Assembly (NCBI GenBank): GCA_016205145.1
Contig: JACQJH010000001.1
Location: 210,001-242,000, forward strand
DNA length: 32,000 nt
Direction of reading: 5' to 3'
From: Candidatus Iainarchaeum sp.
GTDB lineage: Archaea > Iainarchaeota > Iainarchaeia > Iainarchaeales > JACQJH01
In this document: positions 2,144 to 30,382 of the stretch, in pieces
How positions within the stretch are numbered: position 1 is the stretch's first letter
How the letters are laid out: each line of letters begins with the position of its first letter
Position numbers and translations under genes: made by a program
The notes under the pieces: model-generated
Database searches by the model: none
The model's input: only the letters and a program-made list of their open reading frames with translations
What the model was told of the DNA's origin: nothing

Positions 2144-3676
2144 TTAAGACCAGCAGTTTTTCACAGTGTATTCAAGCGAAGCGCTTGAGTCCGCTTCAAC
2201 GGGCACGGAGAACTCGAACGTGTACGCGTCCTTTTTCACGTACTCGAAGTTCGCCTTTGTTATCTGCGCGTTGCCGCCCGCGTTCTCGATTGCCTTCACT
2301 GTAATCTTCTCTTTCTTGTGGTTCCTTATGTCGACCTTGTACGATTGCACCGAGCAGGCCGGAAGGTTCTGCTGTTCAACCGTGGTTTTTTGCGCGGCAA
2401 TGTCGAATGCATAGCCGACAAACAGCTTCCTTTCCTCGTCTTTCGGAGTATGAGTTATGCTGTCTTCGCCCAGGAACTGCGCATTGCTTCCGTCGGCCTT
2501 GTAAACCCTCACAGTGCCGGCAGGCAATGGCATTCCGAGACTGCTTTTTTCGTCGTTCTTGAAGTTGACCATGACTTTAACGCTGTTCGCGCCATCCGAA
2601 TCGCTGCCCGTATAATAGTAGCGGTTGCCCTCGAAGACGAATTCCTTCTGCACTGCAACGCTTTTCGCGCGCAGCAGGGAAATCTGCTTCGACTCCTTGT
2701 CCAAAACGTCGGTTTTCCGGTCAAGCGTGTAAGTATGGTATTCGAAAGCGTTGGCCTGCGAAAAGCCTGGCGCGCTTCCCCCTGCGGCATCCGCTGCCTT
2801 GGATTCTGCCAGCATGGGCACAGGGTAGGCGTTTCTGCCCTGCAGATTCAGTTGTCCGGCAAGCAATGTGAGCGAGGCATTCCTGAAATCAATGCCGGTG
2901 CTGTTTGAAACAGTCACGTTTCCAGAAAAGTCCATTGCGGTCTCGTCATCATTGAGCTTTGCAACGTAGTCCGCGCTCCAGCCGAGGCCGCCGGTCAGAT
3001 AGCTGACATTGACTTTCCTGTTGCCGGAGCTTTCCGCGAAAACTTTGAGCACAAGCGTGGGCTTTGTCAGCAAACCGGGTTTCTGCCCGAACGAAACCGT
3101 TGAAACGTTCTGCAATGAAACTATGCCGTCCTGAGTTTCAAGGACTATGCCGTCGGAATGGCTCAGCAGCTTTCCGGTGTATGATTTCGCTTCCGCGCCG
3201 CCCTGCACTTCAACTGTTATGGTTTCGCCGACAAATTTTTCCAGCAAAGCCTGCCTTGACGCGGTATCATAATCGTAATTCTGTTCCGCTACGAAAGTTT
3301 CAGGGAACATGAGATCATTGAACAAAACCGTGCCCGTGTCGATGAGCTGTGAAACGTCGCTGAAGTTCACTAGATTCAGGCCCTTTTCAAGGGAAATCTC
3401 CCTTGTCTCGTTCACCAGGCCGAGATTGCCCTGGTAGATTGTAAGCGCGAGGCCTGCATTGTCCGGCAGGCTCTGGACTTCCTGTGCAAACGCCTGCAGG
3501 TAGGCTTTCGGCCTTTCCGAGGAAACGACCTTCGAATACTCGCCTATCCTGTACTGCGGTGTTTCCTTCATTCCGGGGTTGAACAGCAATGCAACCACTC
3601 CGACAATGAAAATGACCGCGATGACCGCCAGCAGCTTTTTCGCAAAACCATTTTCCAGAAAATCCTTTCCAACCAT
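2144..3676 (-). CDS. DUF4139-like membrane-anchored protein.
   Basis: 510-aa ORF with an N-terminal TM helix (LLAVIAVIFIVGVVALLF). The central motif VSYLTGGLGWSADYVAKL resembles the conserved W-x-x-Y core of DUF4139 proteins. The family call is by eye only. Confidence 0.7.
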   Translation of the reverse strand: MVGKDFLENGFAKKLLAVIAVIFIVGVVALLFNPGMKETPQYRIGEYSKVVSSERPKAYLQAFAQEVQSLPDNAGLALTIYQGNLGLVNETREISLEKGLNLVNFSDVSQLIDTGTVLFNDLMFPETFVAEQNYDYDTASRQALLEKFVGETITVEVQGGAEAKSYTGKLLSHSDGIVLETQDGIVSLQNVSTVSFGQKPGLLTKPTLVLKVFAESSGNRKVNVSYLTGGLGWSADYVAKLNDDETAMDFSGNVTVSNSTGIDFRNASLTLLAGQLNLQGRNAYPVPMLAESKAADAAGGSAPGFSQANAFEYHTYTLDRKTDVLDKESKQISLLRAKSVAVQKEFVFEGNRYYYTGSDSDGANSVKVMVNFKNDEKSSLGMPLPAGTVRVYKADGSNAQFLGEDSITHTPKDEERKLFVGYAFDIAAQKTTVEQQNLPACSVQSYKVDIRNHKKEKITVKAIENAGGNAQITKANFEYVKKDAYTFEFSVPVEADSSASLEYTVKNCWS

Positions 3677-3760
3677 TCTTTCTCACCACAAAACTCTTTT
3701 CCGCTAACACAATAAACGCGCGACTTTTATAAATCATTTTGCTTTTGTTTAGGCGAAAGG

Positions 3761-4849
3761 CTAACCGCCCAACGCTTTGAAATCGATGTTCCTGCAGACC
3801 GCGGCTTTTTTGCCGAAAAAGAATGCGTGCAGCTTTTCCTTTCCCGACAGCTTTTCCTCTATCCTTTTTTTCATTGCAAGCTGTTCTTCCTGGCCAAACT
3901 TTCCGCGCAAAACAACCTTTCCAGTGCCCAGCCTTTGGAGCGCGGGCACAAGCGCGCTTTCATCCGCGTTTTCCAGCGTTTCAAGCACCCTGAACCTGTT
4001 TTTGAAAAACGCGCTTGCAAGCTCTTCGTCTGCGGACAAAAACTTTTCGTTGAAACCCCATGCTTTTCCGCCCAGAGCTTCCAGCAGTTTTTCCTTCAGG
4101 CCTGCCTTTCCGACAATTTCATCCAGTTCGAACAGGAAACCGCCGAGCTTTTCATCCGGGGCAGAGTTTTGCGCGCCATCGCCTTCAATCCTTTCGCCTT
4201 CAGGCAAAACGACCGCGGAAACCACCGCTTTTTTGAGCTTGCCAAAATAAAGGCTTACGCAGTTCGGCTCGTGCTCCAATGAAACGAATTCCTTTTCACA
4301 GTCAGCAGGCAAATCCTTCAATGCAAGCTCATGCGAAACCTCAACGCAAACGATTTCCACCCCGGCTTTCTTCGCAAACTCTATGAGTTCGCGGGTGTCC
4401 GGCTGTGTCTTGTGCAAATCCTTTTCCCTTCTCTCCGCGCTTCTCCTTGAAGGATCGGCGAAGACGACTTCCGCTTTCAGCGCCTTCAGGTCGGCTTTCC
4501 TGTAATCCGCGCGGATGAATTCAATGTTTCTGCACCCGTATGCTTTGGCATTCATTTTTGCGCACTCTATTGCCTCGGCATCGTTGTCGAAAGCGAAAAC
4601 CCTTTTGCAGTTTTTAGCCAAGGCAATCGCGTCCATGCCGATGCCGCAGCACAAATCAACGCCAATCCCTGCCTTCAGCCTGCCTGCGCGATAGAACGCG
4701 ACCTTTTCCGGCGTCGCCTGCTCCAATGCGGCTTTTGAAGGGAAAAACATTTCCCTGGCCCTTGAAAACTTTTTCTTTGCGAAAAAGCGCAACTCCTTGA
4801 GTTCCTGCTTTGAAATTTCCGGCATGCAAGAATGCTTGTGGAGAAACAA
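3761..4849 (-). CDS. Class I SAM-dependent methyltransferase with a C-terminal extension, possibly THUMP-like.
   Basis: 362-aa ORF. SAM motif I is VDLCCGIGMDAIALA, followed by VFAFDNDAEAIECAK and a post-motif FADPSRR. The true start may be the internal Met at 4825. Confidence 0.8.
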   Translation of the reverse strand: MFLHKHSCMPEISKQELKELRFFAKKKFSRAREMFFPSKAALEQATPEKVAFYRAGRLKAGIGVDLCCGIGMDAIALAKNCKRVFAFDNDAEAIECAKMNAKAYGCRNIEFIRADYRKADLKALKAEVVFADPSRRSAERREKDLHKTQPDTRELIEFAKKAGVEIVCVEVSHELALKDLPADCEKEFVSLEHEPNCVSLYFGKLKKAVVSAVVLPEGERIEGDGAQNSAPDEKLGGFLFELDEIVGKAGLKEKLLEALGGKAWGFNEKFLSADEELASAFFKNRFRVLETLENADESALVPALQRLGTGKVVLRGKFGQEEQLAMKKRIEEKLSGKEKLHAFFFGKKAAVCRNIDFKALGG

Positions 4850-6108: not shown

Positions 6109-6597
6109 GTGGTTTGCATGAACAGGCAAACGCTTTTCAGGCTCGCTGCTTCAATCGCAATCTGCGGGCTTGCCGGCGCAGTCGGCTCAATCTTCACGTT
6201 TCCCGCAATCGCTTCGTGGTATGCGTCAATCAACAAGCCTTACTTCACTCCGCCGAACTGGGTTTTCGGCCCGGTTTGGACAGCGCTTTTCCTGCTCATG
6301 GGCATAGCGCTTTTCCTTGTGTGGGAAAAAGGCTTTCAGGAAAAGGAAAACAAGTTCGCGGTAAAGGTTTTCGGCGCACAGCTCGCCTTGAACGTTTTGT
6401 GGTCACTGCTTTTCTTCGGCCTGCACAACCCTTTCCTAGCAATGATTGAAATCGTTGCGCTCTGGCTGGCGATTGCCGCGACAACCATTCTGTTCAGCCG
6501 CATCGACAGGCGCGCGGCTTTGCTGCTGCTGCCTTACCTTGCGTGGGTTTCATTTGCGGCGTTCCTCAACTATTCGGTCTGGCTTTTGAACGCCTGA
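6109..6597 (+). CDS. tspO: TspO/MBR family tryptophan-rich sensory protein.
   Basis: 162-aa ORF with five TM segments. Motifs: WYASINKPYFTPPNWVFGPVWTALFLLMG ... NVLWSLLFFG ... LLLLPYLAWVSFAAFLN. Confidence 0.92.
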   Translation: MVCMNRQTLFRLAASIAICGLAGAVGSIFTFPAIASWYASINKPYFTPPNWVFGPVWTALFLLMGIALFLVWEKGFQEKENKFAVKVFGAQLALNVLWSLLFFGLHNPFLAMIEIVALWLAIAATTILFSRIDRRAALLLLPYLAWVSFAAFLNYSVWLLNA

Positions 6598-7196: not shown

Positions 7197-8036
7197 TCAG
7201 AAGTTCAATGCAATCAGGCCCAGGACAAGCAGTGCGATTGCGGCATACTTTCTCGCTTCAAGCTTTTCGTTCAGGAAGACTGCGGCGAAGACTGCCGTCG
7301 TTATGGGCAGGCCCGCGCTGATGGACGCTGTTATTGCGAGGCCGGTTTTTTGCATTAGCAGGTTGAAGGCAAGGCTGAGGTCGACTATTGCAAGCCCCCC
7401 GCCCAGCAGGAAAAAAGAATTTTGCCGCGTTGGCAGTTCGATTTTTCTTTTTGAAAGCAGAACGTATGCGAGTATGATTAATCCGATGAGCGCCTGCGAG
7501 TAGAATGCGGTGTTGTAGGGGCCGAGGCTTTTCGTCAAAAACTTCAGCATTATGTAGTAGATCGTCCAGCCTGTTGCGGTTATTGCTATGAATTTTGCGC
7601 CGTCGACGATTTTGTATCGCAATAATGATTTTTTTGCCGCGATGACCGCCGAGGACAGCAGTATTGCCGTTGCCCCAACTGCCTGCATTGCGCCCAGGCT
7701 TTCATTCAGGAACAGGGCGGAGATTGCGATTATCATGAGAACGTAGATGTTTGCAAGCGGCTGGGCTATCGCGGTTTCCATCTTGTGGTATGATTTGAGC
7801 AGTGCGACGATTGCGATTGCGCCCGCAATGCCGGCAACAATAAGCGCAATTATGTCCGCCAAGCCCGGAATTTTCGGTTCGGAGAAAAGAAAAACGCCTG
7901 CCAGCAGGAACGGAGCTGACACGGCATAGAAATAAACGAGCGCCCATTCCTCGGCCATTGACTGCATTGCCTTCTTGCTTGCAATCGGCGCAAGGCCGCC
8001 GAAAAGCAGGAGCAATGCCAGGACAAAAGTTTCCAT
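7197..8036 (-). CDS. EamA/DMT family transporter.
   Basis: 279-aa ORF with about 10 hydrophobic segments in two similar halves, the typical DMT layout. Confidence 0.75.
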   Translation of the reverse strand: METFVLALLLLFGGLAPIASKKAMQSMAEEWALVYFYAVSAPFLLAGVFLFSEPKIPGLADIIALIVAGIAGAIAIVALLKSYHKMETAIAQPLANIYVLMIIAISALFLNESLGAMQAVGATAILLSSAVIAAKKSLLRYKIVDGAKFIAITATGWTIYYIMLKFLTKSLGPYNTAFYSQALIGLIILAYVLLSKRKIELPTRQNSFFLLGGGLAIVDLSLAFNLLMQKTGLAITASISAGLPITTAVFAAVFLNEKLEARKYAAIALLVLGLIALNF

Positions 8037-8091
8037 GCTTGAGTATTGTCGTTTGACGCTTTTTTATTTTGTTTGCAGGCAATCATTAATT

Positions 8092-8823
8092 ATGCAAGTT
8101 GTGCACGGCAAACGGATTTTTCAGGCCCTTTGCGTTTTGCTCGTCGTCTTGTCTTTTGCAGTGGGCTTTTTTGCTCTGCCTTTCCTGCCTGCAAAGGCGC
8201 CGATCCACTGGAACATTGAAGGCAAGGCTGACGGCTTCGGCCCGGCCTGGATGGCGGCATTCCTTGTTCCAATAATGATTGCATTCCTCGCCGGACTGTT
8301 TTTCGTGATTCCGAAAATCGAGGTGCGCAAGGACAACATCAAAAAATTCGAGTCAAGCTACTGGCTGCTCGCGTCCGGCTTGTGCGTGGCGTTGTTCGCG
8401 ATTTTCCTTTTATCGCTTGCCTCGAATTTCGGCTACAATTTCGACATGACGTTTGCGGTTTTAGGCATAATCGCATTGCTGTTTGTCTTCATGGGCCTGC
8501 TAATGCCTTCGTTCAAGCAGAATTATTTTGTCGGTGTGAGGACGCCCTGGGCTTTGGCCGATGAAAGGGTGTGGGTTGCAACGCACAAATTTTCGTCAAA
8601 AGTTTTCATTGCTTCAGGCATTCTTTTCGGTTTATGTGCTTTGCTGCCGAAACATTTCTTTTGGCTCATTCTTGCGGCAATCCTGCTGATGGTTTTCGGC
8701 ACGTTCGGCTATTCGTATTGGATTTACCGAAAACTGCACAATGCGCAGGCAAAAGACAAACTGCCTGAAAAAAGCAAGCCTCCCGCAAAAGGCATAAACT
8801 CCGCCAAAAAAGGCAAAAAATAG
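8092..8823 (+). CDS. SdpI/DUF1648-like membrane protein.
   Basis: The track ORF is 7975-8823. I prefer ATG 8092 (MQVVHGKRIF...), which avoids overlap with the divergent EamA gene. Motifs: LPAKAPIHWNIEGKADGFG (DUF1648-like) and VGVRTPWALADERVW (SdpI-like). The C-terminal tail is Lys-rich. Confidence 0.7.
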   Translation: MQVVHGKRIFQALCVLLVVLSFAVGFFALPFLPAKAPIHWNIEGKADGFGPAWMAAFLVPIMIAFLAGLFFVIPKIEVRKDNIKKFESSYWLLASGLCVALFAIFLLSLASNFGYNFDMTFAVLGIIALLFVFMGLLMPSFKQNYFVGVRTPWALADERVWVATHKFSSKVFIASGILFGLCALLPKHFFWLILAAILLMVFGTFGYSYWIYRKLHNAQAKDKLPEKSKPPAKGINSAKKGKK

Positions 8824-9355: not shown

Positions 9356-10180
9356 CTATTCTTCTATCCTGCTGAACAGGTATGCGGCGATTGCGACTGT
9401 TGCAAGCATGAACGCGGCCGTAACCGGCAGGCTCAACGCTATGCTTATGTATGACTCTCCGAACAGCGCGAATCTCATTGTTTCAACCGCGTACGTGAAG
9501 GGGTTGAATGCCGCAATTGTCCGCAGTATTGCCGGAGAACTCTCCAACGGAAAGAGCGCACCGCTCAGGAAAAACAGCGGCATTATGACCAGGTTTGAAA
9601 TTATCGGAAAGCCCTGCATGTCCTCCATCACAGAGCCGAACATCATGCCGATTGAAACGATCGAGATTGAGATTATTATGACCGCGACTGCGAGCGCAGG
9701 CAAAGCCAGCAAATTTATGTGCACGCCCAGCAGGATGGTCACTGCAAGCATCACGGCTGCCTTGAACAGCGCGTCGGTTGCCCCGCCCAGCGCCTTTCCA
9801 ATCACTATTGCCGGCCTGCTCACCGGGGCAATCAGCGTTTCTTTCAGGAAACCGAACTGCCTGTCGATGAGTATTCCCATTCCTGAAAAGAACGAGCCGA
9901 AAAGTATGGTCATCAGGATTATGCCGGGTGCCATGAATTCAAGATAGTTTGTGCCGGCGCCGCTCACGGCAAACGCCCCGTTGAGGCCGGTTCCGAGTAT
10001 CAGAAAAAACAGCAGCGGCATGCCGAACTGCGAAATCATCCTGCTTTTGGAACGCCGCATCCTCAGCATTTCCCTTTTCCACAGGAAAAAAACCGCCCTT
10101 AATTCGTTGCCCAAAACCATTCCCTTCGCCTCAGCCCCAATTGCCATTCCGCTTTTCATTTCCGCGTGCTCTTGTGCCAT
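9356..10180 (-). CDS. ABC-2 type transporter permease.
   Basis: 274-aa ORF with six TM segments. It overlaps the end of the upstream ATPase gene, the typical ABC-2 exporter layout. Confidence 0.8.
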   Translation of the reverse strand: MAQEHAEMKSGMAIGAEAKGMVLGNELRAVFFLWKREMLRMRRSKSRMISQFGMPLLFFLILGTGLNGAFAVSGAGTNYLEFMAPGIILMTILFGSFFSGMGILIDRQFGFLKETLIAPVSRPAIVIGKALGGATDALFKAAVMLAVTILLGVHINLLALPALAVAVIIISISIVSIGMMFGSVMEDMQGFPIISNLVIMPLFFLSGALFPLESSPAILRTIAAFNPFTYAVETMRFALFGESYISIALSLPVTAAFMLATVAIAAYLFSRIEE

Positions 10181-11166
10181 GCCTTCCGCAGTATCCTCAT
10201 GGAGTCCTTCGCGCTTCCTTCCTCTTCCCTTATCGTCCTGCCCGTGAAATGCAGGAACACGTCGTCAAGCGTGGGCTTCCGCACGCTGATGGAATTGACT
10301 TCAACGCCGGACTTTTCGCATTCCCGGAGAATCTGCGGAACCTTCTTGTCGGCTTCTTCCACGGAAATGTCAACGCGTCCGTCGTGGCAGGTCACGCTTT
10401 TTACCCAGGGATATGCTTCAAGCGCCGCCTTCACTTTCGCGCATTCGGGCGTTTCGATTGAAACAGAGTCGCCGCCAAGCGCGCTTTTCAGCCTTTCAGG
10501 CGAATCAAGCGCGATTATCCTCCCCTTGTCCATGATTGCAACCCTGTCGCACACCCCGTCCGCCTCGTCAAGGTAATGCGTCGTCAAAACGATTGTCACG
10601 TTGTTCTCTTTTTTCAGCCTTTTCACATATTCCCAGATTCGCTTTCTTGTCTGCGGGTCCAGGCCGACTGTCGGCTCATCCAAAAACAGGACTTTCGGAA
10701 AATGCATGAGGCCGCGCGCGATTTCAAGCCTTCTCCTCATTCCGCCGGAAAAAGTCTTGACCTCGTCTTTGAGCCGGTCCTCCAATTCAACCATGCCCGC
10801 GGTTTCCCTTATGCGGCGGCTCCTGTCATCCTTTCCGAGGCCGTACATTGCGGCGTGCAGTTCAAGGTTTTCGAATGCCGTCAGGTCTTCATCAAGGCTC
10901 GGGTCCTGGAAAACAATGCCGATGCTTTTCCTCACGGAATCCGCGTTTTGGACAACGTCAAAGCCGTTGACCTCGGCTTTTCCATCCGAAGGCCTTTTCA
11001 TTGTGACAAGCATTGAAATGAGCGTCGTCTTGCCCGCGCCGTTCGGCCCGAGCAGACCGAAAATCTCGCCTTCACTGACGGAGAACGAAACGCCGTCCAC
11101 GGCCGCAAGGCCGCCGAATTTTTTCGTCAACGCGCTGATTTCAATGGCATTCAAACGCTTCACCAA
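10156..11166 (-). CDS. ABC transporter ATP-binding protein (DrrA-like, with a C-terminal accessory domain).
   Basis: Walker A GPNGAGKTT, Q-loop, signature FSGGMRRRL, Walker B LFLDEPTVGLD, H-loop TTHYLDEA. TTG or GTG start. An AATTTAAAC TATA-like box lies in the 75-nt gap upstream. Confidence 0.92.
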   Translation of the reverse strand: MVKRLNAIEISALTKKFGGLAAVDGVSFSVSEGEIFGLLGPNGAGKTTLISMLVTMKRPSDGKAEVNGFDVVQNADSVRKSIGIVFQDPSLDEDLTAFENLELHAAMYGLGKDDRSRRIRETAGMVELEDRLKDEVKTFSGGMRRRLEIARGLMHFPKVLFLDEPTVGLDPQTRKRIWEYVKRLKKENNVTIVLTTHYLDEADGVCDRVAIMDKGRIIALDSPERLKSALGGDSVSIETPECAKVKAALEAYPWVKSVTCHDGRVDISVEEADKKVPQILRECEKSGVEVNSISVRKPTLDDVFLHFTGRTIREEEGSAKDSMRILRKAWHKSTRK

Positions 11167-11241: not shown

Positions 11242-11775
11242 TCAGTCAAGCCCGGCAAAGCTTTTTTCCGCGTTCACGGCCGAAGCCTCGACAAAGGCGT
11301 TCTGCCGCTCGATGATGCAGGCTTTCATTTTTGCGAGCGCCTTTTCGCCCGGGCCAAGCGCATCCAAGTCGCAGTTCGTGCAGTTTTCGACCTTCACGTT
11401 TTCGCTCTGGCGCAGGCTGACTTTCTCGGCCTTTTCCGCGCCGGCGTTTTCGATTTCCACGACAACCTGCGAGTACTGCGGGCACGGCAGGAGCCTTCCC
11501 TCAACGGGCCTTGCCTTCAGCGCGGTCCGCCCGAGGACCTCGAAAGAAATCTGCGCGGAAACAGCCGTTGTTTTCGCCGAAGTTCCTTCCTGCGCGGAGT
11601 CTGCGCCTTTTTCGCCTGCGCTGTCCGCGGTCTTTCCGTTTGCGCTTTTCGCCGCAAGCGAAAGGAAGCCGCTCGGATTGTTCAACGCAAAAAACGCGCC
11701 CACAAAAACCAATGCGATTGCGAGCAATGCGATGCCTGAAGTTTTTGCATTTGCAGGCGAAACTTTCAGATTCAT
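11242..11775 (-). CDS. Membrane-anchored hypothetical protein with a beta-rich (CARDB-like?) C-terminal part.
   Basis: 177-aa ORF with an N-terminal TM helix (GIALLAIALVFVGAFFAL). Its start overlaps the stop of the upstream gene (ATGA), suggesting translational coupling. Confidence 0.6.
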   Translation of the reverse strand: MNLKVSPANAKTSGIALLAIALVFVGAFFALNNPSGFLSLAAKSANGKTADSAGEKGADSAQEGTSAKTTAVSAQISFEVLGRTALKARPVEGRLLPCPQYSQVVVEIENAGAEKAEKVSLRQSENVKVENCTNCDLDALGPGEKALAKMKACIIERQNAFVEASAVNAEKSFAGLD

Positions 11776-13331
11776 TCAAACCCCACTGTGGCCTCAAGGC
11801 TTGCCTCTTCCGACAGCAGTTGCGCGGAGTCCGCGGTTTCAATGCTGTCCGTTATGGTGTCGCTGGAAATCACTGCCTTGACGGAATAGCTGCCAAGGCC
11901 CTGGATTTTCGCGAAGATTTCCGCATTCTTGGTTTCGCCTTTCTTTATCGAGTCGAAAAACGTTGTCGAAGTGCCGCTGATGATCCAGCTTGCCGGAATC
12001 CCGTCCAGCGAAACGCTCACGTTTTTCGCGTCAACCCTGCCGACGTTCTTTATTGACACGATGAATTTGACTGTCGAGTTCAGGCCGACGGTCCCTTCGT
12101 TCCTGCCGCCGCTTGGAGCCTGCACGCTCAAAGGAAAAGTTTTTTTGTCCAATGCGATTGCCGCCAAAGCCGTGTCAATGGCATTTGACGAATTGCTTTG
12201 CCTGCCGAAACTGCCGTCGGCGTTCGCCTTTGTTTTCAGGCAGTCCAGTGCCTTGTCGGCTTTTTCCGTTTCATTGAATGCCCTGAATGCAATGCTGCCG
12301 AGCGCGGTCCTGAAACCGTCGCTTATGCACCCGTCGGAGTCCTGCTTTGCCGCGAGCCAGTCGATGCTTTTCTGCGCAACGCTTTTTCCTTCGCCGGCGG
12401 CACCCAACGCTATTATCGCTTCTTCCGTGAAATCAACGCTTTCCGTTTCATCCCCTGAGTTGTAGCCGAAACTGCCGTTGGAATGCATTGCGGAAACAAG
12501 GTAATCGGCGGGAGTTTCACCGCCATTTTCAGGCATGCTTTCTCCGGCCTGCGCAAACGCAACAACCGCCCAGGCTGTGGTGTCGACGTCGCTTTCACCG
12601 CTTCCGCTCTTGAAACCGCCGTCGCCCTGCTGTGAATCCTTCAGCAAATCAATCGTCGTCCTGCCGTTTTTTTCGAATGAGTTCAGGTCCTCGCCGGCCG
12701 AAATGAGCGCCATCGCCGCAAGCGCGGTGTTCAAAGAATCCCCGAAGCTTGCGTCGCTTTGCTGCTGTGCTATGATGTAGCTTTTCGCATTTCCCGGAAC
12801 TGCTGAAGCGAGCGCAATGTTGTTGTCCCGGCCCATGCCGAGGCCCATCATTCCGAACGAGTGCTGGAACAAATTCGCGCCAATCCTGCCGCCTGTTTCC
12901 TGCGAATCCGCAAGCCATTCAACTGCGTCAGCGCCCGCACCATCCAAGTAATCGAGTGAAACTGTGCCGTTGTCGTTCGGAACTGCGGCGCTTATGCCTG
13001 TCATTGAAGGCAGGTTGTTTTCGCCGAACTGCCAGTATTTCGAAAAATCGCTTGAAGCGCCCAGGCCGTTGACTGAATTGACGAACGCCGATTCCTTCAC
13101 CCCATCGCCGTCGAAATCGTAGTATGCGATGTCGAGTGCAACGCTTTTTTCCTGTGCCGCCTGCACGAACGCCGTGAATGCATTCGCGTCATCCGCAACG
13201 TTCACGCTTGCGCTCGTGTCGGCCGAAGCGTTTGCGTACGGAAAGTTGAATTTCACGTTCACGGTTTTCGCCTGCGCCGCTTGCGCGAACACGAAAAGCA
13301 GAACAAAGAACAAAAAGCCGATTTTTCTCAT
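11772..13331 (-). CDS. Secreted surface protein: DUF4430-like N-domain, prenyltransferase/squalene-oxidase-type alpha/alpha-toroid repeats, and a CARDB-like C-domain.
   Basis: - Start: track ORF begins at GTG 13340. I prefer ATG 13331 (MRKIGFLFFVLLFVFAQAAQA, a signal peptide) preceded by GGTGGGGGA.
- DUF4430-like pattern: ...AFVNSVNGLGASSDFSKYWQFGENN...
- Repeated Q-x-x-D/N-G-x-F/I motifs: QQSDASFG, QQGDGGFK, HSNGSFGY, QDSDGCIS, NADGSFGR.
- CARDB-like region: VKFIVSIKNVGRVDAKNVSVSL. Confidence 0.75.
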   Translation of the reverse strand: MRKIGFLFFVLLFVFAQAAQAKTVNVKFNFPYANASADTSASVNVADDANAFTAFVQAAQEKSVALDIAYYDFDGDGVKESAFVNSVNGLGASSDFSKYWQFGENNLPSMTGISAAVPNDNGTVSLDYLDGAGADAVEWLADSQETGGRIGANLFQHSFGMMGLGMGRDNNIALASAVPGNAKSYIIAQQQSDASFGDSLNTALAAMALISAGEDLNSFEKNGRTTIDLLKDSQQGDGGFKSGSGESDVDTTAWAVVAFAQAGESMPENGGETPADYLVSAMHSNGSFGYNSGDETESVDFTEEAIIALGAAGEGKSVAQKSIDWLAAKQDSDGCISDGFRTALGSIAFRAFNETEKADKALDCLKTKANADGSFGRQSNSSNAIDTALAAIALDKKTFPLSVQAPSGGRNEGTVGLNSTVKFIVSIKNVGRVDAKNVSVSLDGIPASWIISGTSTTFFDSIKKGETKNAEIFAKIQGLGSYSVKAVISSDTITDSIETADSAQLLSEEASLEATVGFE

Positions 13332-13385
13332 TTCCCCCACCGCCCGCAGATGTTTTTTTTCTTGCGTTCAGAATCAGTGCCGAAG

Positions 13386-13453
13386 CCTTTTAAGCAGTTC
13401 CATTTAGGATAATTATCATTAGCATTCATGGTAACGTTAGCACGCTATTAGCA
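13386..13453. promoter_or_regulatory. Divergent promoter/operator region between the surface-protein gene and the ArsR-like gene.
   Basis: CCTTTTAAGC TATA-like box (about 13387-13396). Perfect 10-bp palindrome GATAATTATC (13408-13417). Three TTAGCA repeats begin at 13419, 13437 and 13448. Confidence 0.45.
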
Positions 13454-13454
13454 C

Positions 13455-14006
13455 TTGGTTTATCATGGTGGTTTGTTGGACATACTGAAGGCTTTGGCCA
13501 ACTCCAACCGGCGCAACATGGTCCAGATTCTCCTCAAAAAGGAAACCCACATTGCCGCGCTCGCAAGGGAATTGAACATTTCCAATCCGGTTGCATTGAA
13601 GCACGCGCGCATTCTTGAGGATAACGGCCTGATTGAACGGGAAAAAGCGGGGAACACGCACATACTGCACATCCGCAAGGACGCGCTCAAGAAAATACGG
13701 CTGGCATCGGAGCTTTTTGAAAAGCCAATTTCTTTCAGCGTCGCGAAAGGCACTTTGCTTTTGGACGCGCTTTCAAAGGTCGATGGCCTCGAGATCGAGA
13801 ACACGAAACAGGGCGCGTTCATCAAGGCAATTGACGGCAAGGAAGGCTACTTTGTCTTTGAAATCAACGGCAAGTTTCCGACAAAGCCGATCGAGGAAAT
13901 CGAAATTTCCGGCAGGACGGAAATCGAGTTGAAGCGCCTTCTGCCCGTCATCGGAAAAAAAATCGTTTTCGAAACAGCCGGTTCCGTCCGGCTGGTCCGG
14001 GACTAA
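13455..14006 (+). CDS. ArsR-family winged-helix regulator fused to a DUF4430-like C-terminal domain.
   Basis: HTH region: LDILKALANSNRRNMVQILLKKETHIAALARELNISNPVALKHARILEDNGLIE. C-terminal part: GTLLLDALSKVDGLEIENTKQGAFIKAIDGKEGYFVFEINGKFPTKPIEEIEISGRTEIEL. The true start is probably TTG 13473 or 13476, after GGTGG. Confidence 0.75.
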   Translation: MVYHGGLLDILKALANSNRRNMVQILLKKETHIAALARELNISNPVALKHARILEDNGLIEREKAGNTHILHIRKDALKKIRLASELFEKPISFSVAKGTLLLDALSKVDGLEIENTKQGAFIKAIDGKEGYFVFEINGKFPTKPIEEIEISGRTEIELKRLLPVIGKKIVFETAGSVRLVRD

Positions 14007-27090: not shown

Positions 27091-27236
27091 TGCCCCGGCC
27101 GGGATTCGAACCCGGGTCGCGGCCTCACCCCGCTCTTGAATTTTTTGGAAAATCCTTGAGAGGGCCGAGTGCTTTCGGCAACAGCTGCTTTTTTTTATAA
27201 AAACAAACCGTTTTAGCCGGACTACACCACCGGGGC
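27091..27236 (-). tRNA. tRNA-Glu (CTC) with two introns: about 40 nt in the D-loop/D-stem junction and about 31 nt at 37/38.
   Basis: Hand fold:
- Acceptor: GCCCCGG/CCGGGGC, discriminator A.
- D arm: GTGT-AGTCCGGCTAA-[intron about 27173-27212]-GCAC.
- Anticodon: CGGCC-CTCTCA-[intron about 27126-27156]-A-GGCCG.
- T arm: CCGGG-TTCGAAT-CCCGG.
- Length: spliced length 75 nt.
- Downstream: a T-run follows the 3' end. Confidence 0.85.
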
Positions 27237-27878
27237 ACTGCAGAATTTTTTGAACCTGTTTATGTGCTTTTTGTTGCTGAACCCGATTTCAGTGAAATAA
27301 CGCAGGACTTCTTTAGAATCTCCCATTGAGCACTGCATTGTATTCCTGTCCTTCTTTTGGGTCCATTTAGATACTCTGTAGCCCAATATTTTAAATGCCT
27401 TTGTTATGCTGCTTTGGATTGTAGGCGATGCCGTGGCGAACCAGATTGTGGGCGTTTTGTGCCTGCGCGTTTTCGGGTAAACGCTTCCGTCAGTGTCAAT
27501 CAATCCCCTGACACAGGCTTTAAGGTAACCGCTTTTTCCAAGAACCCAGCAGGGAATTGCCGCGCCATTCGTGGTTTTATTGCCGTTTTTTATGCCAAAA
27601 TGCATCAGCGTGTGCACCAAATTTTTGCTTTGCTTGAATATGACGACAGCGTTTCCGGTTTTTGGAAATTTTATGCTGAATTCGGTTCCAAACACTTTTT
27701 TGAACAGGCCCGAAGTATAATTTGTCAGATAATCAAAATCGTTCCCGCGATGGCCTATAATTCTTATTTGGTAAATGCTTTTTTCTTTTATAACCTGGCA
27801 GTTTCCGTCGCCAAGCATTATGCCGATAATTTCCGCAAGCTCCGCGCTTTTCTTTTTTGCAAGCAATTTCGGTTTCAT
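27222..27878 (-). CDS. Free-standing double-motif LAGLIDADG homing endonuclease.
   Basis: Motifs IIGIMLGDGN and VRGLIDTDGS lie about 100 aa apart. The start is ambiguous: ATG 27878, ATG 27926, or GTG 27998, which overlaps the U32 stop as GTGA. The stop TAG (27222-27224) lies inside tRNA-Glu. Confidence 0.85.
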   Translation of the reverse strand: MKPKLLAKKKSAELAEIIGIMLGDGNCQVIKEKSIYQIRIIGHRGNDFDYLTNYTSGLFKKVFGTEFSIKFPKTGNAVVIFKQSKNLVHTLMHFGIKNGNKTTNGAAIPCWVLGKSGYLKACVRGLIDTDGSVYPKTRRHKTPTIWFATASPTIQSSITKAFKILGYRVSKWTQKKDRNTMQCSMGDSKEVLRYFTEIGFSNKKHINRFKKFCSAPVV

Positions 27879-27994
27879 CGGCAAGAATTTGCCGTTCTTC
27901 CGCGGCTGCAGCCGGCAATTACCCATAATGTACTGTTGTTTTTGTGGACAAAAGGGGTTTGCCAAGTGGCTTTCCCCTGATTCTTGATTTGGCC

Positions 27995-30382
27995 TCACAC
28001 CGCCTTTTCATAGCTTGCGCGCGTGAACGGCATGTCCGCAAAGCCTTTTCCACCGCCAAGCTTTTCCTTGACGGATGCGATGATTTTTTCCGCGTCTTCG
28101 CCTGAAACGCTGCCAACATCGACCCTGACAACATCGGCAATCGCTTCGAGCTTTTCAAGCTCCGGAACCATGTTCATCGCCATAGGATTGTAGAGGTGCG
28201 TGCGCTCGCTTTCATCCAGTTCAACAGCATATTTCCACTTGTTCCTGTCGATGAGAGTATACCTGCCTTTTTTTGGCAATATTTTGGTTTCGATTATCAT
28301 TATTTCCGGAAGTTCGAATGCGACAAGCTCAATCTTTGCGTCCGTGCGTTTCCGTGTAGCGGAAAGCTGTTTGAGCGTCAGTTCCCCTGACGGCAAAATC
28401 CTTTCGACCTGCGGGTTTTTGGCGAAAAAGTTTGCGGCAATGGAATTGAACACGTTCAAGTTTTTGCCGATGATGATTTTTTCAAAGCCCTGCCCCGCAA
28501 GCCAGTGATAGAGGCCGAGGTTGTTGCATTCGATTGCCGCGCCCGCAAGCTCCGCGCTTTTGCCTTTCACTGTTTCCGACAGCTTTTTGGCGAGCGCTGC
28601 AAGCTCATGGTCCTTCATTATCACGGGCGTTGAAAGCACAAGCTGCATTGCGTGCTCGGAGCAGATTTTTTGCGCTTCAAGCAATGTTTTTTTGTCCGCG
28701 TTTTCCGGGAACGAAACCGCGCAGGGCTTTGCCTGCAGGAAAGCATTCAACTGCTTGAGCGAGGAAACCTTGACTGAGATGGCGGCCTTTCTGCCTTTTT
28801 CATGCCCCGCGTCCTTCAGCAGTTCTTTTTTCCGTTCCTCGAATTTTTTAGCATCAACGTTTTTCCTGAAACCTTCAAGCTTTTTTTTGGTGAACGCGTC
28901 GATGGCTTTCCTGCGCAGGTCGTTGAGCTTGCTGAACGGAACCATGAGGCCCTCGTCGACCTTGACGCTGATGCTTTTCAATTCAAACAATGTTTCGCCG
29001 GTCTTTGAAAGCTTTTCCTCGGCAACCTTTTCTCCGAGCGGGATTTTTTCGGCTTTTTTCGGCGTGAAATCCGAGACGACTTCCGCGGAGGTTTGCCCGT
29101 CAAAAGCCCTTATCCTGAATTCTTTGTGTGAAATTTTCGCTTCAAGGTTCACTTCCGGCTTTTTCATGGTCTTGATTGACGAGTAAGCAAGGTCGGTGAG
29201 CTGTTTGGACTGCACCTTGAAGATTGTCCACCCTTTTTTGATTTCGTGCGGAACCTCGATTTCGACTATTTCGTTTGCAAACGCGTGTTCCATTTCCTTT
29301 CCGTTTTTCAGGATTTTTTTGGCAAAAAAGTCCACTCTCTCGTCGCCCAGCTTGTGCGACAATTTGTCCCATTTCCTGACGCGCTCGAACAATTGGACCT
29401 TTATCTTGCCGTCGGCGTATTCAAGCACTTTCGCGACGCGTATTCCGACCTTTCCCGGATAATCCTTTTTTATGATGTCGTCGTTCTTGCCGTTGAAGTG
29501 CCCTGCCGAAAAGTCGCGGTTGTAGGCTATGCGCAGCTGCTTTATCTCGTCTTCCGAAACCGCTTCTTTTCCGCCGAACGCGTTATCGATTGCTTTCCTG
29601 TAAACCCTTGTCGCAATTGCAACATATTCAGTGCCCTTTTTCCTTCCCTCGATTTTGAATGCCGAAACGCCTGCTTCGGCAAGCTGTTTTATCATGGGCA
29701 CCGCGAAAAGGTCCTTCTGCGACAGCAGATAGCCTTCGTCAATCCTTTTCCCGCCTTCTTCCAAATCGTAAAACAGGCGGCAGTTCTGCGCGCACCTTCC
29801 GCGGTTGCCGGAGCGCTTGAACGAAACGCTGCTCGCAAAGCACTGCCCCGAATATGCTACACACATCGCGCCATGCACAAAGCACTCAACCTCTATTCCG
29901 GTCCCAACCCGTGATTTCATTTCATGGATTTCTTCAACCGAGTTTTCCCTTGCCAGCACCGCGCGCTTGATGCCAAGATCTTTTGCAAACAGCAGTCCTT
30001 CGGTGTTGTGGATTGTCATCTGCGTGCTTGCATGCAATCTCAGCCCGGGCAAAAGCTCGTGCAGGCTGTGCGCCAGGCCGACGTCCTGCACGATTACAGC
30101 GTCAATGCCATGCTCGTACGCACTCTTCGCCATGTCGATTGCCGCGCCGATCTCGAACTCGTTGAGCAGAATGTTCAATGTAAGGTAGGCTTTCCTGCCG
30201 TGCAAATGCAAATAGTCGATTGCTTCTTTCACCTGCTCAGGCGAAAAGTTTTGCGCGCCGATCCTTGCATTGAACGCCTGGTAGCCGAAGTAAACAGCGT
30301 CCGCGCCGTTTGCGACCGCAGCTTTCATGTGCTCAAAGCTGCCCGCCGGGGCGACAAGCTCCGGTTTGATTTGTTTCACCAT
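27995..30382 (-). CDS. Peptidase U32 family protein, long form with a C-terminal extension.
   Basis: 795-aa ORF. U32 signature region EVECFVHGAMCVAYSGQCFAS. The N-terminus KPELVAPAGSFEHMKAAVANGADAVYFG is typical. Confidence 0.9.
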   Translation of the reverse strand: MVKQIKPELVAPAGSFEHMKAAVANGADAVYFGYQAFNARIGAQNFSPEQVKEAIDYLHLHGRKAYLTLNILLNEFEIGAAIDMAKSAYEHGIDAVIVQDVGLAHSLHELLPGLRLHASTQMTIHNTEGLLFAKDLGIKRAVLARENSVEEIHEMKSRVGTGIEVECFVHGAMCVAYSGQCFASSVSFKRSGNRGRCAQNCRLFYDLEEGGKRIDEGYLLSQKDLFAVPMIKQLAEAGVSAFKIEGRKKGTEYVAIATRVYRKAIDNAFGGKEAVSEDEIKQLRIAYNRDFSAGHFNGKNDDIIKKDYPGKVGIRVAKVLEYADGKIKVQLFERVRKWDKLSHKLGDERVDFFAKKILKNGKEMEHAFANEIVEIEVPHEIKKGWTIFKVQSKQLTDLAYSSIKTMKKPEVNLEAKISHKEFRIRAFDGQTSAEVVSDFTPKKAEKIPLGEKVAEEKLSKTGETLFELKSISVKVDEGLMVPFSKLNDLRRKAIDAFTKKKLEGFRKNVDAKKFEERKKELLKDAGHEKGRKAAISVKVSSLKQLNAFLQAKPCAVSFPENADKKTLLEAQKICSEHAMQLVLSTPVIMKDHELAALAKKLSETVKGKSAELAGAAIECNNLGLYHWLAGQGFEKIIIGKNLNVFNSIAANFFAKNPQVERILPSGELTLKQLSATRKRTDAKIELVAFELPEIMIIETKILPKKGRYTLIDRNKWKYAVELDESERTHLYNPMAMNMVPELEKLEAIADVVRVDVGSVSGEDAEKIIASVKEKLGGGKGFADMPFTRASYEKAV

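Follow-up and report, generated by a model that had tools for sequence, protein, structure and literature searches.

A unit of three genes lies between positions 11,242 and 14,006 of a 32,000-nucleotide stretch of Candidatus Iainarchaeum DNA (contig JACQJH010000001.1, positions 210,001 to 242,000; hereafter the window). It comprises a gene for an ArsR/SmtB-type regulator, a divergent gene for a secreted surface protein, and a gene for a 177-aa protein coupled to the latter. With a probability of about 0.6, this unit is a self-contained module for the acquisition of corrinoids (vitamin-B12-type compounds) in a Diapherotrites/Iainarchaeota archaeon. A model of capture and sensing is supported by the domain that the regulator and the surface protein share, by the conservation of the module, by a conserved operator, and by the cobalt and corrinoid genes that surround relatives of the regulator. 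The three open reading frames (ORFs) from which the original prediction had proposed such a capture protein are present in the window where it had placed them.

Domain architecture of the three genes

The genes and their domains are arranged as follows.

11242..11775, minus strand: small coupled protein (177 aa; N-terminal transmembrane anchor, low-complexity linker, ~100-aa four-cysteine domain)
11772..13331, minus strand: secreted surface protein (519 aa plus stop; signal peptide, SLBB/DUF4430, alpha/alpha toroid, beta-sandwich)
11808..12098, minus strand: C-terminal beta-sandwich of the surface protein, DUF11/CARDB-like (aa 412-508; Pfam and strands of the AlphaFold2 model)
12150..12938, minus strand: single alpha/alpha toroid of the surface protein (aa 132-394, 12 helices; invariant S-D248-V-D250-T-T, Cys335 and Cys364)
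12939..13268, minus strand: N-terminal DUF4430/SLBB beta-grasp domain of the surface protein (aa 22-131; motif YWQF...NN...G(I/V)S)
13476..14006, plus strand: regulator gene (176 aa plus stop; ArsR/SmtB-type winged helix-turn-helix, then DUF4430/SLBB)
13758..13931, plus strand: DUF4430/transcobalamin-like SLBB domain of the regulator (residues 102-159 in 183-aa numbering; putative ligand-sensing domain)

The mechanically called reading frame of the regulator starts at TTG 13455, which gives the 183-aa numbering. TTG 13476 is the likely true start, because all homologues begin with MDxF, aligned to residue 8 of the 183-aa frame, a GGTGG Shine-Dalgarno-like box lies 4 nt upstream of this codon, and independent gene calls give a protein of 176 aa. 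The regulator is of the intracellular type, without a signal peptide, and matches Pfam HTH_5 (23.8 bits, cut-off 22) as well as NCBIfam HTH_metalloreg (51.9 bits, slightly under the cut-off of 55). As originally predicted, DUF4430 is found in both proteins above the Pfam cut-off of 23.8 bits, at 24.9 bits in the regulator and 25.4 bits in the surface protein. When 32 regulator homologues were scanned one by one, all 32 matched HTH_5 and 30 matched DUF4430 at E <= 0.01 (best E = 4e-9); the marginal DUF4430 scores are therefore not due to chance.

The AlphaFold2 (AF2) model of the regulator, built on the family alignment (predicted local distance difference test score, pLDDT, 86.6), consists of a winged helix-turn-helix (HTH; residues 7-73), a helix (75-88) and a beta-rich domain with a helix and a hairpin. 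Foldseek searches with this model returned ArsR/SmtB proteins only, because the HTH dominates the search. The matches included 3gw2, NolR, HlyU and CzrA (E ~4e-5 to 1e-4), with target-normalised TM-scores of 0.7-0.8 and root-mean-square deviations of 1.8-2.9 Å; CadC and SmtB were also matched. A direct comparison of the regulator C-domain with the N-domain of the surface protein by hhalign gave P = 8e-4 over 42 columns, which is modest support for their relationship. A weak match of the regulator to NCBIfam SdpR (34 bits, cut-off 100) probably reflects generic ArsR similarity only; an SdpI/DUF1648 membrane protein is encoded elsewhere in the window, at 7975-8823 (plus strand).

The regulator family is small, with only 19 clusters (50% identity) at E <= 1e-30 among 1.84 billion representatives. 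The C-domain profile also matches the giant proteins P0114 (1553 aa) and P0119 (2038 aa), together with P0129 (511 aa), and these three carry 4-10 tandem DUF4430-like repeats.

The surface protein, read from ATG 13331, is identical to the database protein P0042 and to the gene calls in three sequencing runs. It begins with a Sec-type signal peptide (MRKIGFLFFVLLFVFAQAAQA, followed by K). The domain calls of the original prediction were correct for both proteins by Pfam and AF2. At the level of individual Pfam families, DUF4430 (PF14478) and Prenyltrans (30.8 bits, cut-off 26.5) were recovered in the surface protein, as was SQHop_cyclase_C (27.9 bits, cut-off 26.1), but the CARDB assignment stayed under its threshold (17.8 bits, cut-off 22.7); DUF11 exceeded its own (25.5 bits, cut-off 24.6), and NPCBM_assoc reached 21.6 bits. 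Most homologues of the surface protein have precomputed PF14478 matches. The AF2 model, also built on the family alignment (pLDDT 88.5, predicted TM-score 0.72), shows a signal helix, a beta-grasp domain (21-129), twelve helices (132-394) and a beta-sandwich (412-508). The predicted swap of domain order relative to transcobalamin is thus seen in the protein, the SLBB domain (22-131) preceding the toroid (132-394).

The transcobalamin-like clade of SLBB domains has as its signature a beta-grasp core with a beta-hairpin inserted after the helix (PMC1796856). Both models place a helix and then a hairpin in this domain, at H51-61, E66-71 and E81-87 in the surface protein and at H102-107, E112-117 and E120-126 in the regulator. 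The surface-family profile matches the beta-domains of intrinsic factor (6e-5) and haptocorrin (2e-3) over residues 57-127.

The start codon of the small protein overlaps the stop codon of the surface gene as ATGA, in keeping with the translational coupling that had been proposed. The small protein has no Pfam or NCBIfam match. Its family alignment contains four invariant cysteines (C98, C132, C135 and C153).

Conservation of the module, cobalt/corrinoid neighbourhoods and a candidate operator

Related loci were collected by a scan of one genome per species with an alignment of 12 closer regulator sequences as the query, which returned 52 loci. Hidden Markov models (HMMs) made from the family alignments of this study were run over all fetched loci, and neighbouring ORFs were clustered by BLAST, the cluster representatives being annotated. 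The regulator homologues P0007, P0031 and P0005 (loci L001, L003 and L005) lie in unrelated flanks, with purine genes, PcrB plus an epimerase, and histidine genes, respectively. The divergent neighbour of each nevertheless encodes a DUF4430 and Prenyltrans protein of 489-544 aa, followed by a 163-170-aa protein without a Pfam family.

By HMM, the surface-protein family is divergently adjacent to the regulator in 17 of the 24 DPANN-type loci, at distances of 34-191 nt, so that the pair named in the original prediction proves to be conserved as neighbours. Of the 14 loci whose flanking sequence reaches far enough, 13 encode the small protein immediately after the surface protein; L011 lacks it, and in L021 its coding sequence is broken into two ORFs. 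All 17 full-module loci come from related DPANN lineages, and the surface-protein family (~28 clusters) is confined to Diapherotrites-type genomes.

The remaining DPANN partners of the regulator vary; those with Pfam matches are likewise secreted surface proteins. That of L007 is small, has DUF4430 alone and precedes a DUF6580 membrane protein. L008 has a small DUF4430-only protein whose ORF is cut off at the contig end, L044 a DUF4430 protein and L025 a beta-propeller-CARDB protein. The partner in L058 (3794-5902, minus strand) has its toroid at 140-286 and DUF4430 at 380-422, which is the transcobalamin order; a second DUF4430 protein (2800-3774, minus strand) and then an ABC (ATP-binding cassette) ATPase preceded by an operator-like site are also encoded there. 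No Pfam match was found for the partners in L022 and L026, and those in L026 are two paralogous proteins of ~200-220 aa encoded divergently from the regulator.

In five Iainarchaeum loci the other side of the regulator carries, in convergent orientation, genes for a small DUF4430 protein and for a DUF6580 protein. Such pairs, in which the secreted DUF4430-only protein has 143-153 aa, adjoin the regulator in L013 (6510-7506), L014 (4739-5823), L017 (6507-7387), L018 (3710-4677), L012 (1735-2726) and L007 (5737-6940). For DUF6580, no PDB sequence match at E <= 10, no NCBIfam match and no literature were found. It is a candidate membrane component of an uptake route.

Outside the DPANN archaea, full-length relatives of the regulator (38-44% identity over both domains) are found in Methanoperedens, in other ANME-2 (anaerobic methanotrophic archaea) and in ANME-3. 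Further full-length relatives are found in the cultured Methanosalsum natronophilum AME2, Methanomethylovorans, Methanosarcinaceae and Methanocellales. About 18 of the 29 methanogen-type loci have the regulator within 5 kb of a BtuF/FecCD/ATPase/CbiZ, a CbiMNQO or a CobN set. The first set, consisting of Peripla_BP_2 (BtuF type), FecCD, an ABC ATPase and CbiZ, occurs in L032, L038, L039, L041, L042, L046, L052 and L054, and probably also in L051. CbiM-CbiN(PDGLE)-CbiO-CbiQ occurs in L009, L028, L029, L037, L042 and L043, and CobN with DUF2149, ExbB and DUF2162 in L047, L048, L050 and L057. In L032, L038, L039 and L041 the regulator heads a same-strand array with the btuF-type importer genes; the array regulator-btuF-fecCD-ATPase-cbiZ is complete in L032 and L041, and is truncated by the contig end in L038 and L039. 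NCBIfam names a neighbour in L009 CbiM at 322.8 bits (cut-off 219), with CbiN under its cut-offs. These neighbourhoods lend independent support to the corrinoid idea of the original prediction.

The CobN set encodes CobN (~1350 aa), DUF2149, MotA/ExbB and DUF2162 (a predicted transporter), at ~0-5900 on the minus strand of the four loci. It is divergent from the regulator and conserved in ANME-3 and Methanosarcinaceae, and may be a cobalt/corrinoid uptake and chelation unit.

NikR genes also lie within a few kb of the regulator, in L028 (9771-10265), L029 (10197-10619), L043 (6-425) and L053 (3028-3450). They stand beside a second CbiM/CbiQ/ATPase set in L028 and L029 and ~1 kb upstream of the single set in L043; near that of L053 there is none. 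Paralogous energy-coupling factor (ECF) transporters may accordingly be controlled separately, by NikR for nickel and by the HTH-SLBB regulator for cobalt/corrinoid.

In bacteria, cbiMNQO, btuFCD and chelatase genes are reportedly as a rule under cobalamin riboswitches. Neither the window nor 131 kb from 14 related methanogen loci gave a match to the cobalamin riboswitch (RF00174) at the gathering threshold. The same set contained a fluoride riboswitch unrelated to the module (L028 11433-11493, minus strand, 57 bits, on a Methanosarcinales contig).

The region between the two divergent genes contains candidate control elements, of which the promoter elements were read by eye.

13332..13475: divergent control region of the surface-protein and regulator genes (the sequence between both starts)
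13388..13394, plus strand: TATA-like box TTTTAAG on the regulator side (upstream alignment by eye; aligns with TTTTAAAT(A/G)GTT in homologous loci)
13408..13423: operator-like imperfect palindrome GATAATTATCATTAGC (family consensus GATAAT-N4-ATTAYC, core TAAY-N4-RTTA)
13430..13443: third half-site region GGTAACGTTAGCAC, corresponding to the conserved GRTAATA box 5-6 nt past the palindrome in relatives

Alignment of upstream regions gave three forms. In DPANN archaea the layout is TTTTAAAT(A/G)GTT (TATA-like), ~10 nt, GATAAT-N4-ATTAYC, 5-6 nt and GRTAATA. The Methanoperedens type has GCAACAATTGTTAYC, 3-20 nt before the ATG; in the Methanosarcinaceae and ANME-3 the start codon is overlapped by GATAACAATTATGAC, after which comes GRTAATAA. 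The operator core TAAY-N4-RTTA is common to all three forms and thus to two phyla. A strict-pattern scan of 503 kb found 25 sites against 7.9 expected from shuffled sequences, and 17 of the 25 lie at most 110 nt upstream of regulator starts. A scan with a position weight matrix (PWM) found 43 sites against 3.2 expected, most of them being training sites and five not. Two of the non-training sites concern cbiM: GGTAATAATTATTATC precedes this gene by 66 nt in L037, and another site lies at its annotated start in L028. In both scans, the palindrome at 13408-13423 is the only match in the window.

The operator is positioned ~20 nt downstream of the TATA-like box and would therefore overlap the predicted transcription start of the regulator gene, which implies, by analogy with other archaeal repressors, that the regulator may repress its own transcription. 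Upstream of the regulator in L026 (5957-5994), the operator-like 16-mer GATAATAATTAATATC is present in two identical tandem copies, 22 nt apart.

Proposed corrinoid capture and its alternatives

In the proposed mechanism, the secreted 519-aa protein would capture an external corrinoid between its N-terminal SLBB (DUF4430) domain and its alpha/alpha toroid, and its C-terminal beta-sandwich, together with the co-translated four-Cys membrane protein, would hold it at the cell surface. Inside the cell, the regulator would attach to the palindrome GATAAT-N4-ATTAYC through its ArsR-type winged HTH. Intracellular corrinoid, detected by the C-terminal SLBB domain, would switch this binding and so adjust transcription from the shared control region. 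The regulator would then be the protein counterpart of the bacterial cobalamin riboswitch. The wider proposal has about an even chance of being right. It holds that HTH-SLBB proteins are the archaeal equivalent of that riboswitch, repressors that sense corrinoids by a transcobalamin-type beta-grasp domain and act on TAAY-N4-RTTA palindromes. In methanogens and ANME they would govern the import of cobalt by CbiMNQO, the import and salvage of corrinoids by BtuFCD-CbiZ, and chelatase clusters; in DPANN archaea they would govern the surface capture apparatus.

The structural model of the surface protein is compatible with the proposed binding role. Foldseek matched it to the cobalamin carriers 3kq4_A (9e-6), 2pmv_A (1.6e-5) and 4kki (1.8e-5). 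It also matched thioester-containing domains (TEDs; CD109, A2M, C4b and TEP1), SsDMS, squalene-hopene cyclase and prenyltransferase beta-subunits; CD109, A2M and TEP1 were the top matches, and other toroid families scored equal to or better than the cobalamin carriers. Because the search reaches every branch of the toroid superfold, the fold fits a transcobalamin-like binder without singling it out. Two specific identities were examined and rejected. The surface protein does not have the features of a class II terpene cyclase: D248-V-D250-T is not DxDD, the last Asp being Thr, there is no D.DD anywhere in the protein, and it has one toroid (~260 residues) rather than a beta-gamma double barrel. 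Neither is it a thioester protein of the alpha2-macroglobulin, C3, TEP or CD109 kind, having no C.EQ motif and C335 and C364 as its only cysteines; the likeness to these proteins is that of a generic toroid plus beta-sandwich.

Several observations weigh against corrinoid capture and sensing. The operator lies upstream of the presumed surface-gene promoter and not within it, which bears on the direction in which that gene would be controlled. On the surface protein, Pfam Cobalamin_bind reaches 15.6 bits (cut-off 25; E = 0.008) over a 50-residue stretch. The toroid is nearer in sequence to class II terpene cyclases than to cobalamin binders: residues 227-395 of the surface-family profile match residues 270-454 of SsDMS, within only one cyclase domain, at 3e-18, and the profile matches squalene-hopene cyclase at ~2e-11. 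The invariant S-D-V-D-T-T motif (12579-12596, minus strand, residues 246-251) aligns with the cyclase DxDD, D250 falling on the general acid D303 of SsDMS. General library scans of the window proteins found neither a membrane importer nor a B12-dependent enzyme. An obvious cobalt/corrinoid neighbour is missing from 11 of the 29 methanogen-type loci, several of these 11 being contigs of 2-4 kb. Among PDB sequences, the regulator C-domain profile found no transcobalamin or intrinsic-factor beta-domain (best E = 0.46), and no report of ligand binding by prokaryotic DUF4430 proteins was found in the literature. Finally, B12 is often synthesised by the very archaea that have these proteins, so that another metabolite is possible (Burroughs et al. 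2007, PMC1796856).

That last point, raised by the same authors for B12-synthesising archaea (PMC1796856), opens the way to a different soluble ligand, either another tetrapyrrole (F430, heme or precursors) or an unrelated cofactor, for which the architecture would work alike. The divergence of the regulator SLBB from the transcobalamin and intrinsic-factor beta-domains is consistent with this, and Pfam alone cannot separate CbiM/N/Q/O from the nickel (Nik) ECF transporters, NikR being nearby in several loci. CobN-type chelatases in methanogens are not all cobalt-specific, which also counts in its favour. Such a ligand is nevertheless rather unlikely. CbiZ (adenosylcobinamide amidohydrolase) is specific to corrinoid salvage, and at least seven loci encode it together with the regulator and an importer of the BtuF type. 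The L009 neighbours are named CbiM and CbiN by NCBIfam, the former above its cut-off and the latter below, and NikR adjoins a separate, second transporter set in L028 and L029. Cobalamin is moreover the ligand of the only SLBB domains in the clade with a known ligand (PMC1796856). The same CbiZ and BtuF contexts, which point to a corrinoid and not to free metal, speak against direct sensing of cobalt (or nickel) ions by the regulator, with the C-terminal beta-grasp serving only for oligomerisation or partner binding. Clear ArsR/SmtB membership, seen in the HTH_metalloreg score and in the Foldseek matches to CzrA, CadC and SmtB, would suit a metal sensor, as would the cobalt ECF transporters among the neighbours. 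The window regulator, however, contains no cysteine, and the family alignment shows no invariant ligand set in helix 75-88. It thus has neither the classical alpha3N Cys motif nor the alpha5 Asp/His-x-His...His/Glu site, and does not resemble a classical ArsR metal sensor; the invariant His residues of the family occupy generic recognition-helix and wing positions. With the C-domain also kept as DUF4430 in 30 of 32 members, direct metal sensing is improbable.

The likeness of the toroid to class II cyclases, which extends from the sequence matches to SsDMS and squalene-hopene cyclase and the alignment of the invariant motif with DxDD to a Foldseek E-value of 1.6e-7, raises the prospect that the toroid is a module of the terpene-cyclase kind or one for prenyl binding. 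In that case the surface protein would bind or process isoprenoid lipids, for example lipids scavenged from a host, with the SLBB domain as an accessory, and lipid synthesis is commonly lacking in DPANN archaea. A single toroid with Thr for the last DxDD Asp does not, however, provide the active site of a beta-gamma didomain. The protein is secreted, the domain that it has in common with the regulator is the SLBB domain and not the toroid, relatives of the regulator sit with cobalt/corrinoid genes and never with isoprenoid genes, and the toroid fold matches intrinsic factor and haptocorrin too; there is accordingly little to recommend an isoprenoid role. Least credible of all is that the divergent pairing is merely inherited local gene order, with the regulator controlling something else and the surface protein acting as a generic S-layer adhesin or TED-type inhibitor-like protein. 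CD109, A2M and TEP1 at the head of the Foldseek matches, and the origin of all 17 full-module loci from related DPANN lineages, would be in line with this. Against it stand the absent thioester motif, flanks that differ completely between loci in which the three genes stay together, the operator in the shared intergenic region, and distant regulators that are still paired with other secreted DUF4430 proteins.

Neighbouring genes and relation to described systems

The window itself is archaeal. A tRNA at 27091-27236 (minus strand) gives an Rfam match that spans 146 nt and was missed by ARAGORN, which indicates an intron. The ORF at 27222-27998 (minus strand) overlaps this tRNA and has a weak LAGLIDADG_3 match. 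Named homologues of the window proteins come from metagenome-assembled genomes of Candidatus Diapherotrites/Iainarchaeum (DPANN). The ABC-2 exporter downstream (9356-11166) was rejected as a member of the unit because it is absent beside the module in all other loci, where its permease has no counterpart; its earlier assignment to a separate unit is thereby borne out. A TspO/MBR family protein (178 bits), of a family known for tetrapyrrole binding, is encoded at 6109-6597 (plus strand), ~7 kb from the module.

Both halves of the module are members of described, computationally predicted classes, and the system as such is not of a new kind. Burroughs, Balaji, Iyer and Aravind defined the SLBB superfamily in 2007, together with its transcobalamin-like clade (Biol Direct 2:4, PMC1796856). 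The claim that the regulator architecture was undescribed fails, as the same paper reports fusions of an ArsR-like winged HTH with a transcobalamin-like SLBB domain in Methanosarcina (for example gi 72395507) and predicts, independently of the present analysis, that they act as one-component transcription factors with B12 or its precursors as the signal. The window regulator resembles these proteins in its N-terminal ArsR-type winged HTH and C-terminal SLBB domain, in its ~40% full-length identity to Methanosarcinales proteins and in being a predicted B12 sensor. It differs in belonging to a DPANN archaeon and in being divergently paired with a secreted SLBB-toroid protein. The 2007 paper gives no operator, regulon or neighbourhood statistics for the HTH-SLBB proteins.

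Bacterial members of the transcobalamin-like clade are mostly secreted, and bacterial SLBB-toroid surface proteins carry the toroid on either side of the SLBB domain, C-terminally in Bacillus (gi 42782379) and N-terminally in Desulfotomaculum (PMC1796856). The swapped order is therefore not new. The genes of these proteins sit with CbiO and CbiQ genes in organisms without B12 synthesis (PMC1796856). The window protein has in common with them a signal peptide, the Bacillus order of SLBB and toroid, extra Ig-like/beta-sandwich domains and a predicted B12-scavenging role at the surface; where they have a CbiO/CbiQ operon, it has a four-Cys membrane partner and a divergent SLBB regulator. In transcobalamin, intrinsic factor and haptocorrin (PF01122 plus PF14478; 2PMV, 3KQ4, 4KKI), the same two folds are present, and in the solved structures B12 lies enclosed by the toroid on one side and the beta-grasp domain on the other. 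The window protein departs from these eukaryotic carriers in its reversed order, its sub-threshold Cobalamin_bind score, its toroid sequence nearer to cyclases and its extra beta-sandwich.

Other likenesses are functional only. The cobalamin riboswitch regulon (RF00174) shares the kinds of target genes and the logic of end-product feedback, as an analogy of function, but the sensor predicted here is a protein and not an RNA. Bacteroides BtuG and BtuH likewise capture cobamides at the cell surface ahead of a membrane transporter; BtuG (a beta-propeller) and BtuH (DUF4465) have unrelated folds, belong to a Gram-negative outer membrane and are riboswitch-controlled.

A literature search found no experimental work on the regulator or surface-protein families. 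Relative to the 2007 description, the present analysis adds the DPANN three-gene module with its four-Cys partner, figures for how often the regulator accompanies BtuFCD-CbiZ, CbiMNQO and CobN loci in Methanosarcinales and relatives, a candidate operator common to two archaeal phyla, and the absence of detectable cobalamin riboswitches from these loci, within the window and the 131 kb scanned.

To our knowledge, archaea generally lack cobalamin riboswitches, and we know of essentially no experimental account of how archaea regulate cobalt/corrinoid uptake and salvage. This question can now be tested, as there are candidates for the operator and for the regulon, the latter consisting of the DPANN surface module and the cbiMNQO, btuFCD-cbiZ and cobN clusters, and a choice of cultivable hosts, namely Methanosalsum natronophilum AME2 and the Methanosarcina species of PMC1796856. 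DPANN archaea rely on other cells for cofactors, and the module points to a surface route by which a vitamin may be captured. If the surface protein does bind corrinoids, it would become the first relative of transcobalamin and intrinsic factor to have been tested from a prokaryote. The regulator, if it responds to corrinoids as proposed, would be the first transcription factor of this fold to sense B12 without being a photoreceptor. Together they would provide a handle on vitamin dependence in DPANN symbionts.

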